Source: Methanobacteriota archaeon (lineage in GTDB: Archaea; Thermoplasmatota; Thermoplasmata; SG8-5; JAGLSY01). From it: a stretch of DNA of 64,000 nt. The position numbers and the translations under genes were made by a program. The notes under the pieces are model-generated. The model saw only the letters and a program-made list of their open reading frames with translations. It had not been told where the DNA came from and made no database searches. Shown one piece after another: positions 1-55,310 of this stretch; position 1 is the stretch's first letter; every line of letters starts with the position of its first letter. The stretch covers positions 224,001 to 288,000 of the forward strand of contig JAEHCO010000002.1 of the NCBI GenBank assembly GCA_020697715.1, in the 5' to 3' direction.

Positions 1-3000
1 ATAACTGTTCCTCTGGGTCAGGATATCGGAAATGTGGTGAATTTGGCAGTTCTTAATGACACGATGTTATTCAGCATTGATAATCCCAAGCATGGTGACA
101 TAGTTACCATATCCGCCGTGATCAGGAATACTGGATTGGATTATTCCTGGGTGGATGTATACTTCTACGACGGGAATATGTCAACCGCCCCTATCGGACA
201 TAATGAGATATTGATCTCCGGTGTTGATTCACAAACTGCTTTCATAGACTGGAGAGCGGCCCCTGGAGGTATACATCAGATATATGTGGAAGCTGTTGTA
301 AGAGCACCAAAGGAAGATTTCGATCCAACTGATAATTTCAATTGGACCAAGCTATCTGTTCTACCTACTATATTGTTAGTGGATGATGATAATCATGACA
401 ATGACAGGTCGGATGCAGATACTGTAAGTTTCATGCGTTCATCCCTTGAATCAGGTTCATTCCAGTATGATTATCTGAAAGTGGGCCAGAACCTGAATGG
501 ACCCGGTTATAATTATGGAAGTTACAGATTGCAGAATTATGACATCGTGATATGGATGACCGGGTATGAAAGCACAAGCACACTTACAATGGATGACCAG
601 GCCAATCTAAAGAGATACCTGACCGATACATCCAATGATAGGAACAATACTGGAAGTCTTTGGCTCATTGGGAATAACTGGTTGGAGGATCCCAACCTTG
701 ATGAGGCCTTCTCCAATTCAACATTCTTAAGGGATTATCTTCACATTGATTCTTCGGCTGCCATTGTATCGCCTGGCAATACAATGGCAGGCCTGAATTC
801 TCATATCATATCCAAAGAATGGACAACTACTGGCTCCAGTAAGCCTTTTGATATCATTAAGAGAGATGGAGGCGATGACACTCTTTACAATATAACTCGT
901 GCTCCTGTCGCTACTGGCTATGTGGAGGATATGCTTGTGGTGGGCAATGATACCACTGCCATAAATTATGAGAACAATATCCTGGATGAAAGAATTGTGG
1001 TGTTCCCTTGGGAATTCTCCAGAATAGATGATCCTTCGATACAGACACAGATGGCCTTCAAGGTCATTAGATGGCTGGGTGGTATCGATGAGACCCTTGG
1101 GAAGGATCTTGCCATATCCAGCCAGAAAATGTCTCTATCATATATCTTCTATCAACAAGAGGTCATGATAAGTGCCACGGTACGAAATAATGGCGAGGAG
1201 GCTCTTACCGGTGTCAAAGTTTTGATGTTCGTTGATGGTGAGGCACAACCAGACAGTGAGCGTATAATCTCACTTGAAGGAGATGGTGGAAGTCGTAGGG
1301 TATTTTTCAATTGGACTGCAAATGTTGTAGGACCACACACGATCAAATGGAAGGTTGACCCACTCGACATAATTCATGAGACCAATGAGAACAATAATGA
1401 GGTGTCGGATTATCTGACCACTGGCGAGCTTATCGTGGAGTTCAGGATATTGGTGGTAGATGATGATGATAGCTCGAACAATGGAGGGGGAGAATACAAT
1501 GAGACCAAGGTCATAAAAAATATCATGGACGATCTTGGATATGTCTATGAGAATCATACTGTCACCAATACCGGTATCAATGGTCCTGGCGCGGAAACAC
1601 TGGATGATTACAGTGCGGTCATATGGGTCACAGGTAATGCCAGTACGGATACTTTGACATTGGTGGACGAGGTCAATATCAAAGACTATATGAGAAATCA
1701 TAATGGCAGGCTCTGGCTAGTAGGTGCGAATTGCCTAGGAGATAGTGTGACCCCTGGATTCGAAGATATTGTATTTGGTATAGATGGCATAAATGATAAT
1801 GAACAACTGCCAGAAATTCTGAATGGGGTGGAGGACGATCCGATCACTCATGGTATGGAAATACAGATATCTGATGGCGACGGAGCCGATGCGGACACCA
1901 TAACTACAGGAACTGGGGCAAATGGCTTCCTGGCAGATGGTAATGAGTATTATGGAATAAGGTACTATTCCAATGTTTCTTCTTCTTTCAGTGCTGTTAT
2001 GACCATGTCCTTTATGAACATCGCTGGAAATACCCCGGGTTACATCAGTGGCAGTAATGCCAGATCTGAATTATTGTACATGATATTCCACTGGTTCCAG
2101 AAACCAGATATGAGAACTGAATTGAGAATAACCAACACAGATCTTTCAGTATCTGATCAAAATCCTGTATTGGGGGATGCGTATATCCTCCAGGCTACAG
2201 TGCATAATGCAGGATACGTTGAAGGAAATGCACTTATTCGCTTCATGGATGGCAATACCCAGATAGGATCTGACTCCATCAGCATAAGCCCAGATGATAC
2301 TACGACTGCCGAGGTAATATGGAGACCACTCTTTGCAGGAAATAGGAACATAACCGTCATGGTAGACCCATTCATTCCAGTATCTGAAGTACCGGAGATC
2401 TTCGAGTGGTTCAATAATAATATCACCATGCCCATTTACGTATACTTCTTCTGGGATGATATGGAGGACACGGCCAGTAGCTTGAATAAATGGAACCATT
2501 ACTCCACTATTGTCAATATCAATGGAGAGAATCCTATAGACTACTTCACGACCACCACAAATATGGACACGGATGTCATTTCGAATTGGGATGCCACAGC
2601 CAGCTATGGTGTGGATGTAGTCACGGACGAGTTCCATACTTACGACACTTCTTTCTTCATGGAGGAACCCACAGGGGCCTTTGGAGAGAAGGCGGATGTG
2701 CTGGTGGGTATAGTCATAGATAATTCACCTTCCATGGTTAACAGATTTTGTCCAGATGGCTCTGGCAGAACCTATCTCAGGGTGGCTATGGATGCTGCTA
2801 TCGGTATGGTCAATGAATTCACGGATGAATCCGCTGTAGGTGTTTACATATTCAAAGGTGCGAATGAAGAACAGCTTATCCAAATAACAGATCTAGCAGG
2901 AAATGGCAGGCAAACTGTCATAGATAAAATTAATACGATAAAGACCGAACAGGGAAACACCAATACAGCTATCTGGGATGCAATCGGATTCCAGTATGAT

Positions 3001-39965: not shown

Positions 39966-40097
39966 TTAAGTCCATCCCTGGATTAACTATAGTATAGTAA
40001 TCAAGAGAGAATAGATAAGTGTTTTGTTGGTGATCTCATGGATTATCATCTCCAAAGCTTTTATTATGGACATTGTGTTCTCGATAAAATTACCAAA

Positions 40098-40172
40098 GGG
40101 CGCGTAGCCTAGCCAGGATATGGCGCTAGCCTTCTAAGCTAGAAGCCAGGGGTTCGAATCCCCTCGCGTCCG
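40098..40172 (+). tRNA. tRNA-Arg(TCT)
   Basis: Acceptor GGGCGCG/CGCGTCC+G; anticodon arm CTAGC-cttctaa-GCTAG; T arm AGGGG-TTCGAAT-CCCCT; 75 nt; CCA not encoded. Confidence 0.95.
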
Positions 40173-40309
40173 TTTTTTATTTTTATATAATTAGAGGGCG
40201 CTAGGTGGATTCGAACAGGGTTCGATGAGATTTTTCTGAATGAAATGGAGAAAAAGCGAGCAAGACCGGGATGCTGGAGGCGGACAGGTCGTTGATCCCC
40301 TCGCGTCCG
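40173..40309 (+). mobile_element. 137-bp structured miniature element ending in a duplicate of the tRNA-Arg 3' end
   Basis: ATCCCCTCGCGTCCG at 40158-40172 is repeated at 40295-40309. GGATTCGAAC-agg-GTTCGA-t-GAGA at 40207-40230 matches the start of unit 1 at tRNA-Leu. Confidence 0.65.
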
Positions 40310-40326
40310 CTCTTTTTTTAAAATGC

Positions 40327-53595: not shown

Positions 53596-54639
53596 TCAAA
53601 TATGATCGTAGATATTCGCATTGGCCCCACCATGGCCAATGTCTGTTTCTATCTGCTTTAATAACAATATTCTTTTGAATGTAGATGGGTGGGTGGACAT
53701 GAACTCCATCCTGGCGCGCCCACTCTTTGCTTGTTCTTCCATGGCCTTCTGAAGTTCCCTGTCATCCAGAACTCCATCACCATCCAGATCATACTTGTTC
53801 TTGTTCTGCATGATACTGGCGATCTCTCTTTTCGCACTGACCGGATCTCCGATATAAAAGGCTCTGGCGGCTCCTGGTTTTTCATTTGACAATGAAAGTC
53901 CGAAAGTTATCTTGGCAAGTGCCGAGCTGAGGCTGTGCGGGTCGCCCGTGGCTACCGCGGAATAGGAATCCGCGTAGAACTCTCTCTGCCTTGAAAGTTT
54001 CAAAATAAGTAGCTGTGATATGAAATATACCGCATAGCTGATGATCGCGATAATGATGATCGCTCCAGCATCCCTGTTGCGCCTTCCTCCCCAGAGGAAG
54101 CTTCTGGCCAGCATCCAGGCCAGCATGGGTATCGCACTGACGACCGTCATGACAACGACGTCATTGTGTCTAAGATGGCCGATCTCATGCGCGAGCACAC
54201 CCTTGACCTCTCTCTGGTTCAGCTTTTCCAGAAGCCCGGTGTGAACTGCCAGAGTTGAACTCTTCCTTGACCTTCCGAACACGAAAGCATTGGGTGTTGG
54301 ATCATTGGAAATAGCTAGTTTCGGCATTGGAATGTCCGCTTGCTTTGCCAATTGACTAACTTCTTGCTCAAGCCAGGGATTTTCACCGGGTTTTAGATAC
54401 TGAAGACGCGATCCCCATCGTATTATACCCGGGGATATCGCCCATTGTATGAGCATGAATATGCCGACAAAGAAGAATATCAAAATAAGCTGGCCGATAA
54501 TATTGACGGTTCCATTGTAATACCACATGATGAATTCGAATATCAGCATGATGAACACGAACAGAAGTCCGAATATCATGATGAGGGTGAGAGCCATGCT
54601 CCTTTTGAGTGCGCCAAGTGAGGCCATTGTGTCCGGCAT
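53596..54639 (-). CDS. htpX: Zinc metalloprotease HtpX (M48) with an EF-hand-like insertion
   Basis: PNAF, HTGLL, GVLAHEIGH (HExxH), SRQREFYAD and STHP motifs; DLDGDGVLDDRE loop. Confidence 0.9.
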   Translation of the reverse strand: MPDTMASLGALKRSMALTLIMIFGLLFVFIMLIFEFIMWYYNGTVNIIGQLILIFFFVGIFMLIQWAISPGIIRWGSRLQYLKPGENPWLEQEVSQLAKQADIPMPKLAISNDPTPNAFVFGRSRKSSTLAVHTGLLEKLNQREVKGVLAHEIGHLRHNDVVVMTVVSAIPMLAWMLARSFLWGGRRNRDAGAIIIIAIISYAVYFISQLLILKLSRQREFYADSYSAVATGDPHSLSSALAKITFGLSLSNEKPGAARAFYIGDPVSAKREIASIMQNKNKYDLDGDGVLDDRELQKAMEEQAKSGRARMEFMSTHPSTFKRILLLKQIETDIGHGGANANIYDHI

Positions 54640-54740
54640 GATAATTTCAAGATATAAGGATATCGGCGGAAAATATACACAATCCAATCAAACATTATAT
54701 AAACATCTTGATTTTACAGGGTTTACCCAAAGAACACCAT

Positions 54741-54824
54741 GCGGGGATAGCCAAGCCTGGTCAACGGCGCTAGATTCAGGGTCTAGTTCTTAGTGATTCG
54801 CCGGTTCGAATCCGGTTCCCCGCA
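54741..54824 (+). tRNA. tRNA-Leu(CAG)
   Basis: Acceptor GCGGGGA/TCCCCGC+A; anticodon arm CTAGA-ttcaggg-TCTAG; long variable arm; T arm GCCGG-TTCGAAT-CCGGT; 84 nt. Confidence 0.95.
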
Positions 54825-54924
54825 TTTTTCATTATAGGATTCGAACGAAGTTCGATCGAGAATTTATTCATAAATTCGAGAGAGCACCGCAACGAAGTGT
54901 AGGTGCGAAATCCGGTTCCCCGCA
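54825..54924 (+). mobile_element. tRNA-Leu array unit 1 (100 bp, same type as the tRNA-Arg element)
   Basis: Core starts ATAGGATTCGAAC-gaa-GTTCGA; hairpins GAATTTAT/ATAAATTC and GCACC/GGTGC; ends with AATCCGGTTCCCCGCA (= 54809-54824). Confidence 0.65.
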
Positions 54925-55082
54925 CCTTGTTTTATAGGATTCGATAGTAGTAGTCGGTTGCCGTAAACCCACCATTTTCATTCAGCTAAACTCGAAGCCA
55001 GACGTATGCTTCGAGAATTTGGGTTTATGGCCTACGATGGGAACATCATGCCAGGGGCATATCGTTCACACGGTTCCCCGCA
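54925..55082 (+). mobile_element. tRNA-Leu array unit 2 (158 bp, structured)
   Basis: Core starts ATAGGATTCGA at 54934; ends CGGTTCCCCGCA at 55071-55082; homologous to unit 3. Confidence 0.65.
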
Positions 55083-55310
55083 TTTTTCATTTTTAGATGC
55101 GACTTCACCCATAGAACCCACGCATCTATTTTATCAAACTCATTTATGTGTTTGATTCGATAGGATTCGAAAGTAGTAAACGGTTGCCGTATGCTCATCG
55201 AAAAATATTCATCTGAACTCGAAGCAAGACGTAAGCTTCGAGATTTTGAGCATATGGTCTACGGATGTGAACATCATGCCAAAGGCATATCGTTCACACG
55301 GTTCCCCGCA
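55083..55310 (+). mobile_element. tRNA-Leu array unit 3 (228 bp; core 55160-55310 homologous to unit 2)
   Basis: Core starts ATAGGATTCGA at 55160; ends CGGTTCCCCGCA at 55299-55310, followed by CCA; two extra hairpins in 55093-55157. Confidence 0.65.

Follow-up and report, generated by a model that had tools for sequence, protein, structure and literature searches.

A structured, gene-less insert behind tRNA-Arg(TCT) of a Thermoplasmata archaeon, a candidate mini-element aimed at tRNA 3' ends

tRNA genes are classic landing sites of viruses, plasmids and genomic islands, and in the accepted picture the guest is a large element with its own integrase and one preferred tRNA. Here, we describe a gene-less insert at positions 40173-40309 of a 64,000-nt window (the whole stretch analysed; C22:224001-288000, contig JAEHCO010000002.1) from an archaeon of the Thermoplasmata. 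The source genome, G000, is a 2.12-Mb assembly of 34 contigs, 93.8% complete, and was compared with 60 relatives (61 genomes in all), including the congeners G001, G002 and G003 and a member of another genus, G004. ARAGORN and Rfam agree that tRNA-Arg(TCT) and tRNA-Leu(CAG) are the only tRNA genes in the window. Both are occupied, as a first-pass annotation made from the letters alone had stated, the former by one unit and the latter by three. The Arg locus is laid out as follows.

40098-40172, plus strand: tRNA-Arg(TCT), intact (ARAGORN; Rfam tRNA model, 65.7 bits); its last 15 nt, 40158-40172, are the proximal repeat copy.
40173-40195, plus strand: T-rich, insert-borne trailer TTTTTTATTTTTATATAATTAGA, by its sequence a terminator-like run for the rebuilt tRNA, containing the TATA-like TTTATATA.
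40196-40210, plus strand: antisense arm X', GGGCGCTAGGTGGAT, which pairs with the distal copy to give helix P1 in the RNAfold minimum free energy (MFE) structure.
40211-40225, plus strand: hairpin P2, TCGAAC-agg-GTTCGA, in which the T-loop is written antisense and its 5' half then follows in sense.
40226-40261, plus strand: hairpin P3, closed by a YGAG/CGAG tandem-GA motif, here TGAG and CGAG, with the cap CUGA...UGGAGA (consensus fold, covariation).
40262-40294, plus strand: hairpin P4, AAGACCGG...CAGGTC, plus the linker GTTG (covariation; body-only model R2, see below).
40295-40309, plus strand: distal copy of ATCCCCTCGCGTCCG, beginning at T-loop position 59, with the native T-rich trailer next to it at 40310-40320.

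A repeat search places the exact 15-nt 3' end of the tRNA, ATCCCCTCGCGTCCG, at 40158-40172 and again at 40295-40309, a spacing of 137; the two copies are separated by a non-coding stretch of 122 nt, and the whole insert measures 137 nt. No open reading frame of at least 80 amino acids overlaps 40173-40294. The T-loop GTTCGAATCC at 40152-40161 and GGATTCGAAC at 40207-40216 form a perfect 10-nt inverted pair. The strings quoted for this locus by the first-pass annotation are all present, namely GGATTCGAAC-agg-GTTCGA-t-GAG, the ATTTTTC...GAAAAAG and GACCGG...CAGGTC hairpins, and GTTG-ATCC followed by the Arg 3' end. The proximal copy is followed by insert-borne sequence, the trailer TTTTTTATTTTTATATAATTAGA, which is unlike the native CTCTTTTTTT; the native-type trailer (CTCTTTTT...) now lies 3' of the distal copy and is similar to the trailer at an empty site in G002.

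This empty site identifies the Arg(TCT) unit as inserted DNA, because G002 has tRNA-Arg(TCT) and the same downstream gene with no unit and only the T-rich trailer CTTCTTTTT... between them. The congener G003 carries the unit, which is 86% identical to that of G000, compared with 85-89% for the neighbouring genes and 95% for the tRNA; the unit evolves at about the rate of its flanks.

When occupancy was tabulated over the tRNA genes of G000 (Infernal plus ARAGORN), a copy of the gene's own 3' end was found behind 13 of 40 calls. A copy was counted if it comprised at least 10 nt of that end, lay within 700 nt downstream, was in register and started in the T-loop or T-stem; tRNA-Ser(GCT), where the match is a neighbouring tRNA-Ser, and tRNA-Met(CAT), with a partial T-arm copy only, were left out. 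Two more tRNA genes, listed by neither program (C11:45930 and C11:45561), also have a copy, which brings the total to about 15 of roughly 42 tRNA genes, i.e. about one third. By our own arithmetic, chance alone would put an exact 15-nt copy at a distance of some hundred bases about 1e-6 times per tRNA, and since copies stand behind 13 of the 40 calls and two further genes, the repeats are not a product of chance. Genome-wide the units are 80-175 nt long and belong to several structural types.

Direct repeats of a tRNA 3' end are the standard scar of integrated elements according to a thaumarchaeal survey (PMC6563490), and the units might accordingly be worn-down attL/attR scars of kilobase-sized proviruses or plasmids that formerly sat in these tRNA genes. 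There is no shortage of integrases in the order, one of them in G003 at tRNA-Glu(TTC), and arrays of units often end in truncated 5' unit parts. The smallest integrated element in the same survey is, however, 2.6 kb long and has an integrase; the inserts here, at a third of the tRNA genes, lie about twenty times below that size, the smallest that we found in print for an integrase-bearing element. A parent element was found neither in the 61 genomes nor among viral contigs. Random deletion would also leave neither the same body at eight tRNAs nor closed four-way junctions with paired ends and compensatory changes in 21 of 30 pairs, as documented below, and we consider this origin quite improbable.

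The family to which the Arg(TCT) unit belongs, termed type A, was delimited with a covariance model (R1) built from four units, those at Arg(TCT), Lys(CTT), Arg(CCT) and Gly(TCC). At E<=1, R1 matches eight places in G000, all eight directly behind tRNA genes; four are the training sequences and the other four lie at Glu(CTC), Leu(TAG), Leu(CAG) and Arg(CCG). The units at Lys(CTT), Arg(CCT) and Gly(TCC) are clear homologues of that at Arg(TCT), those at Arg(CCG) and Glu(CTC) more distant ones, and type A units are about 100-160 bp long. The P2 motif by itself has six matches in the genome, five of them directly behind tRNAs. One component of R1 derives from the T-loop, each tRNA's own T-loop being written antisense and then sense; the unit at tRNA-Glu, for instance, has the P2-type hairpin GGATTTGGATC-gta-GATTCA, from the different T-loop of that tRNA. 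A second model, R2, was therefore built from the body alone, with the T-loop-derived helices removed. R2 still matches Arg(CCG) (30.4 bits), Glu(CTC) (27.2 bits) and the Gly(TCC) unit of G003 (41.7 bits), so that the family similarity extends beyond the T-loop 10-mer; its match to 40226-40294, at 79 bits, is to a sequence from its own training set. The proposal that homologous, gene-less elements occupy several tRNAs and terminate in the 3' end of the respective host is thus borne out by eight R1 matches, every one of them behind a tRNA.

Across the 61 genomes, R1 matches only G000 and its congener G003, where six units were found, at Arg(TCT), Arg(TCG), Arg(CCT), Lys(CTT), Gly(TCC) and Leu(CAG); R1 found no type A in the two other congeners, which are 74-78% complete. 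The Lys units of G000 and G003 have an odd 5' half in common and are clearly orthologous, while P4 of the G003 Lys unit is like P4 of G003 Arg(CCT), and P4 of the G000 Lys unit is like those of G000 Arg(TCT) and Arg(CCT). Because this likeness follows the genome although the 5' halves are orthologous, parts of the unit body move between loci within a genome. A scan of the window at Rfam gathering thresholds returned only tRNA, and an Rfam (15) scan of 11 unit loci at E<=1 returned only tRNAs and chance-level matches. The pattern GGATTCGAACNNNGTTCGA occurs at 27 loci of viral contigs, none of them type A (best model score 17.4 bits), and a literature search found, within the wording chosen, no description of such inserts.

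The insert in the Arg(TCT) unit folds as a four-way junction (RNAfold, consensus). For the 14 type A units of G000 and G003, the alignment, which was fitted to the model and flatters the structure, has 95.1% of its 386 cells paired and compensatory change in 21 of 30 pairs. The margin over the controls is large: none of 500 shuffles reaches those values, and partners slid by 1-3 columns pair in 29-48%. Changes on both sides affect 8 of 9 pairs in P3 and 9 of 10 in P4. There are 25 G·U or U·G cells against a single A·C or C·A cell, and it is therefore on the tRNA-sense strand that the fold has been selected, either as RNA or as single-stranded top-strand DNA. The closing strands of P3 (YGAG/CGAG) are capable of tandem G·A pairs, and its cap reads UC-UGA-N6-UGA-AGA in 8 of the 14 units, resembling what we take to be the consensus of the archaeal K-loop.

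The tRNA end also enters the fold as an antisense strand. In 9 of 17 units the 5' part is antisense to the 3' strand of the acceptor and T-stem of the unit's own tRNA, as the best or near-best match in comparison with other tRNA ends; these units lie at Ala, Lys, Arg(CCT), Arg(TCT), Arg(CCG) and Cys, and in G003 at Arg(TCT), Arg(TCG) and Arg(CCT). In the other eight only a GGAT/ATCC foot pairs. For Arg(TCT), the duplex of X' with its own core reaches -19.9 kcal/mol, compared with a mean of -16.2 for other tRNA ends, one of 15 others being equal. P1 of this unit pairs 40196-40210 with 40295-40308 through one mismatch and one bulge and has minihelix geometry, with a 7-bp acceptor-like helix on a 5-bp T-stem-like helix; in the MFE structure it mimics the acceptor plus T stem and leaves the discriminator unpaired. 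Exactly this start, opposite position 72 and with a free discriminator, is found at Arg(TCT), Lys, Arg(CCG), Ala and Cys. Taken together, P1 and P2 reproduce in double-stranded form the part of the tRNA gene that runs from the T-loop to the 3' end. On the sense strand, the body exits between positions 58 and 59, and a T-run follows every unit.

The first-pass annotation had explained the repeats as a 12-16 bp target duplication of the local 3' end. We do not accept this account because repeat lengths vary and antisense arms exist: exact repeats measure 11, 12, 15, 16, 19, 20, 21, 29 and 34 nt, the one at Arg(CCG) extends to ~62 nt with four mismatches (our own count), repeats often enter the T-rich trailer, and duplication by a staggered cut cannot make the antisense arms of 9 of 17 units. 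The same mechanism underlies the idea that the units are a miniature casposon, a solo terminal repeat or the product of another staggered-cut transposon with target-site duplication. Casposons of Methanosarcina (PMC4779613) enter tRNA-Leu genes, where they give rise to 14-bp duplications and leave solo repeats behind; these too are archaeal elements at tRNA 3' ends that make duplications of ~14-15 bp, insert in tandem and have relics devoid of genes. A length of 15-16 nt is found for several of the repeats here, and the mismatch in the antisense arm of the fresh G003 Arg(TCG) unit is in keeping with a duplication of host sequence. In contrast to casposons, the units have no terminal inverted repeats at their ends, fold as single strands and have repeats of 11 to 34+ nt that run into the trailers; Cas1 was found neither in G000 nor in the four other genomes of its family that were searched (G001-G004), and the antisense arms in 9 of 17 units are tRNA-specific. 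A casposon-like origin is, in our estimation, the least probable of the explanations weighed here.

Behind tRNA-Leu(CAG), the window holds a longer array.

54740-54825, plus strand: tRNA-Leu(CAG) (ARAGORN and Rfam), the second occupied tRNA of the window.
54826-54924, plus strand: Leu unit 1, similar in layout to type A; scores of 32.5 bits (full model) and 8.3 bits (body only); in G000 and G003 only.
54925-55082, plus strand: Leu unit 2, a type B three-way junction, kept behind tRNA-Leu(CAG) across two genera.
55088-55161, plus strand: double-hairpin 'D' module, a dispersed repeat inserted between Leu units 2 and 3.
55162-55310, plus strand: Leu unit 3, a second type B copy.

Each of the three units terminates in the Leu 3' end, at +100, +258 and +486. 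Leu unit 1 had been described as built on the same scaffold as the Arg unit, a description that stands in part. Apart from the T-loop hairpin, the CGAG-hairpin-CGAG motif and the overall layout are all that the two have in common; homology of the body is weak (R2, 8.3 bits, E 0.064 in 2 kb with filters off), and one part of the scaffold, the string GGATTCGAAC...GTTCGA, is present but is simply each tRNA's T-loop written twice. The notion of one family at many tRNAs holds, on better examples than this pair. Type B folds as a three-way junction in which 17 of 37 pairs show compensatory change (seven sequences from five genomes of two genera), and its terminal copy tracks a change in the acceptor of tRNA-Leu(CAG), CCCCGCA versus CCCTGCA. 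In G001, G002 and G004, tRNA-Leu(CAG) is followed directly by type B with no type A, whereas in G000 and G003 type A lies between the two. Likewise, at tRNA-Arg(TCG), G003 has a type A unit ahead of a small unit that in G000 stands alone. As type A sits before the older units at both tRNAs, new units enter beside the live tRNA and older ones are displaced outward.

The units could also be resident small-RNA genes that mimic the tRNA end, each RNA forming an acceptor/T-stem minihelix in which three helices replace the T-loop. On this account the RNAs might bind L7Ae, arise by read-through or from a promoter of their own, be trimmed by tRNA enzymes, serve a function connected with the cognate tRNA, and spread rarely by duplication. 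The fold, its strand bias and the fact that type B is conserved make this a serious rival, if on balance an unlikely one. Much of the structural evidence suits it: the strand-specific fold (25 G·U cells to one A·C), the heavy covariation in both types, the tandem-GA motif together with the cap in 8 of 14 type A units that we presume to be K-loop-like, the start of P1 opposite position 72 with a free discriminator at Arg(TCT), Lys, Arg(CCG), Ala and Cys, and the T-run after every unit. So does type B, which is found at tRNA-Leu(CAG) in five genomes of two genera with a terminal copy that co-varies with the tRNA. A resident gene is harder to reconcile with presence or absence that differs among congeners at three tRNAs, with type A being confined to 2 of 61 genomes, with half of the units lacking an acceptor-antisense arm and with the want of any Rfam match even at E<=1. 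Archaeal transcription starts ~22 nt downstream of the TATA box, and the TATA-like boxes here lie only 0-12 nt upstream of the units, so that a start would fall within the fold. A look-up with 9.9 kb of the window listed no sequencing run. tRNA minihelices and tRNA-like structures (PMC11392972) offer a parallel, since the acceptor and T stems recur, discriminator unpaired, in P1 of the Arg unit; unlike them, the modelled RNA would have three helices in place of the T-loop, and half of the units would lack the acceptor strand.

With moderate confidence, we read 40173-40309 as one copy of a genus-restricted, gene-less, non-autonomous and structured mini-element aimed at the segment between the T-loop and the 3' end. 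A mobile element and a resident RNA gene are not mutually exclusive. As we picture it, a module would enter a tRNA gene by recombination within the segment from T-loop position 58/59 to the 3' end, and would supply its own copy of that segment, which keeps the tRNA intact, along with a new T-rich trailer and the structured body; the original 3' end with its native trailer would be displaced 137 bp downstream. Successive entry next to the live tRNA would build arrays such as that behind tRNA-Leu. The tRNA-sense strand would fold into the four-way junction, P1 and P2 replicating the segment from the T-loop to the 3' end and the variable P3 and P4 emerging at 58/59, and the mover would act in trans.

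Attachment (att) sites in tRNA genes are classified by sublocation, one class being that of the T-loop. In its layout the unit comes closest to a tRNA attachment site of this class as used by tyrosine integrases, and the identity blocks here start in the T-loop or T-stem, as they do there. An example is mycobacteriophage Ms6 at tRNA-Ala (PMC1762012). In this class, direct copies of the stretch from the T-loop to the 3' end bracket the insert, as they do here; further points of likeness are an insert that rebuilds the tRNA, arrays at one tRNA and retargeting to other T-loops by a change in the core. The differences are also clear: integrase elements of this class measure kilobases and carry an integrase, whereas the units are 0.1-0.17 kb long and gene-less, and they combine one scaffold at eight tRNAs with an antisense arm and a covarying, strand-specific fold.

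Several observations weigh against a mobile mini-element. For recombination, each module has to bring the end of the correct tRNA and, in nine of the 17 units, an antisense arm to match, a double retargeting that the mechanism does not explain. The fresh Arg(TCG) unit of G003 has a perfect core with a mismatched acceptor part of the arm, which points to a duplication made from host sequence more than to an element adapted beforehand. Type B, kept across two genera and tracking its tRNA, resembles a functional, conserved RNA more than it does a parasite. Neither a parent element nor a free or circular form was seen, and the scan of viral contigs was negative. In G000, at 93.8% completeness, no cognate recombinase was found: its one tyrosine recombinase gene (PF00589) has orthologues across the order (E ~1e-46 to 1e-48) and is therefore probably the chromosomal Xer-type enzyme; an SSV-type integrase (PF16795), Cas1 and reverse transcriptase were sought in this genome and not found. 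Finally, the only classical integrase seen at a tRNA within the genus, that of G003 at tRNA-Glu(TTC), has no unit-like flank. In G005, similarly, no unit-like sequence accompanies an integrase that adjoins tRNA-Trp. Searches of G000 for other transposition functions gave only an 18-bit sub-threshold match to the TnpB zinc-ribbon domain and a 67-residue fragment of the IS110 DEDD domain at a contig end. The first-pass annotation had held that the machinery recognises the conserved T-arm; since no machinery was identified, this is something that we can only infer.

A further candidate mover in G000 is a Y1 HUH transposase homologue (C1:16359-16709, Y1_Tnp, E 4.6e-29). The domain occurs in 16 of the 23 genomes of the order with 1 to 3 matches each (one in 10 of the 16), and the gene is syntenic in G000 and G003. 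REP/REPIN repeats with RAYT and the miniatures of the IS200/IS605 family are small, non-coding, dispersed hairpins folded on the top strand, and the IS200/IS605 family inserts without target duplication. The units share with them the small hairpin form, the top-strand fold that tolerates G·T and a single-copy Y1 HUH gene conserved in the order, and might be single-strand DNA hairpin elements of the IS200/IS605-PATE or REP/REPIN kind, moved by a Y1 homologue that recognises T-arm-like hairpins. These genomes also have further hairpin repeats at scattered sites (the D module and a ~250-nt repeat, see below), and the Y1 gene adjoins odd tRNA-like genes in G000, G003 and G001. We nevertheless think such elements improbable. 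Unlike the known miniatures, type A units lie only behind tRNAs (8 of 8 matches, none elsewhere) and are flanked by copies of the tRNA end, a target duplication foreign to IS200/IS605. The hairpin beside the Y1 gene occurs only once in the genome, with no REP-like dispersal, there is no TnpB, G002 and G004 (74-83% complete) gave no Y1 match, and nothing was found that links the Y1 gene to the units.

The tRNA-like genes beside the Y1 gene (G000 C1:16359-17340, L102; G003 L105; G001 L101) are 87-90 nt long, with a long extra arm, and are called Phe GAA or Leu CAG by ARAGORN; two lie in tandem in G003. A long palindrome adjoins them.

In integron attC sites and the attP of CTX phage, one strand folds so that an inverted repeat rebuilds the duplex site, structure is conserved over sequence, and a tyrosine recombinase of the host or supplied in trans does the work. 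It is conceivable by analogy, although we think it unlikely, that the units are gene-less mobile elements of a comparable kind, in which the folded single strand rebuilds a duplex replica of the element's own target and is inserted by a host enzyme. The cargo hairpins would then leave at 58/59 and insertion would proceed as with the folded DNA of integron attC or CTX phage, with the Xer-like recombinase or the order-wide single-copy Y1 HUH protein as candidate enzymes. The likeness is one of analogy only, as the replica here copies a segment of a tRNA gene and not a dif or attI partner.

The position of the body invites one further explanation. Archaeal tRNAs are known to have non-canonical introns in the T-loop (59/60), and split tRNA genes are known as well; the structured insert at T-loop positions 58-60 of a separately encoded tRNA 3' half has a likeness to both. 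The body might thus be a T-loop intron with a duplicated 3' exon, read-through transcripts being spliced at 59/60 and the tRNA being made with or without splicing. It lies exactly at 58/59-59/60 of the T-loop of the second 3'-half copy, and motif pairs in register 59/60 number 8 of 10 at Arg(CCT), 7 of 10 at Lys and 7 of 10 at Arg(TCT). A full bulge-helix-bulge is, however, formed in no register of 13 units, the best reaching 8 of 10 pairs of which three belong to the T stem; T6 or T5 runs after the complete tRNA precede the supposed intron; and in G000 and G003 no type A match (14 in all) interrupts a tRNA that lacks an intact copy upstream. Unlike T-loop introns, then, the units have no bulge-helix-bulge and an intact tRNA with a terminator upstream, and splicing strikes us as very unlikely to account for them. 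A bulge-helix-bulge intron tried for Arg(TCT) itself was rejected, with at best 7 of 10 pairs and only 2 of 4 in the central helix.

At eight or more tRNAs a single scaffold has been fitted to its host, and the copied tRNA end serves as one of the strands on which its fold is built. Should the units be mobile, they would represent a minimal tRNA-targeting element, and one would have to ask by what means the target copy is retargeted and which enzyme of the host has been hijacked; should they be RNAs, they would be a hitherto unrecognised family that mimics tRNA ends. In both cases the 3' flanks of tRNA genes, their terminators and the gene order around them are changed by the units, which also provide spare tRNA ends as possible docking sites.

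Array ends often consist of the 5' part of a unit only, comprising the trailer, the antisense arm and the first hairpin (G002 L094 ~420-520, minus strand; G000 L004 296-345 and L003 383-420; G001 L079 472-520). Two of these stop immediately past TTCGACGAG, and this points to repeated breakage where P3 begins.

The D module is ~70-85 nt long, reads A[GA]ATGCGAC...CGCAT[CT]T and then ATCAAAC...GTTTGAT, and is inserted at T-runs. Besides its place between the Leu units, it occurs after tRNA-Phe, within two type C units and within the Arg(TCT) unit of G003; further G000 loci are C11:472622, C11:637476, C11:672692, C12:253 and C22:214169. A dispersed structured repeat of ~250 nt, for which no Rfam match was found, lies away from tRNAs and has as its middle hairpin the core of the type B units, in the layout GGTCGAGAAC...GATGAATCGAC ... 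GCCGTA-hairpin-TATGGC ... TATGGCCTGGTAGTTTAC. It is present in G000 at C22:45137, C11:49764, C28:124576 and C33:14769. G004 has about 10 matches; of 10 regions inspected there, the module is present in nine (L084-L087, L089-L093) and absent in L088.

Other tRNA genes of these genomes have peculiarities of their own. Upstream of tRNA-Lys(CTT), two extra tandem blocks of ~47 nt (G000 C11 ~391620-391765, L012; G003 L019) each combine the leader ACAATACAATAT with the initial 12 nt of the tRNA and a short hairpin, and mirror on the 5' side what the units are on the 3' side. tRNA-Arg(CCT) spans ~100 nt in G000 (C11:413150-413249), with an insert after the anticodon, and 76 uninterrupted nt in G003 (L017:1396-1471), and thus has an intron in one congener that is absent in the other. 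Tandem 49-nt repeats at G000 C11:388760-388880, each with the T-arm-like hairpin GGGAGTTCAAATCTCCC, abut a tRNA fragment on the opposite strand. Short tRNA-bearing segments, with or without a unit, are inverted relative to the flanking genes between congeners, as seen for Arg(TCT) in G003 (C46:58650-59060 versus window 40050-40320) and for Leu(CAG) in G001 (C427) and G002 (C162) versus window 54200-54830; they recall the integrase-driven inversions at tRNA genes in Thermococcus (PMC5495485). Lastly, the very short G000 contigs C7 (432, 667) and C24 (237) carry a repeat at ~235-nt spacing with GGATCCCCTCGCGTCAA, which has 12 nt in common with the end of tRNA-Arg(TCT).

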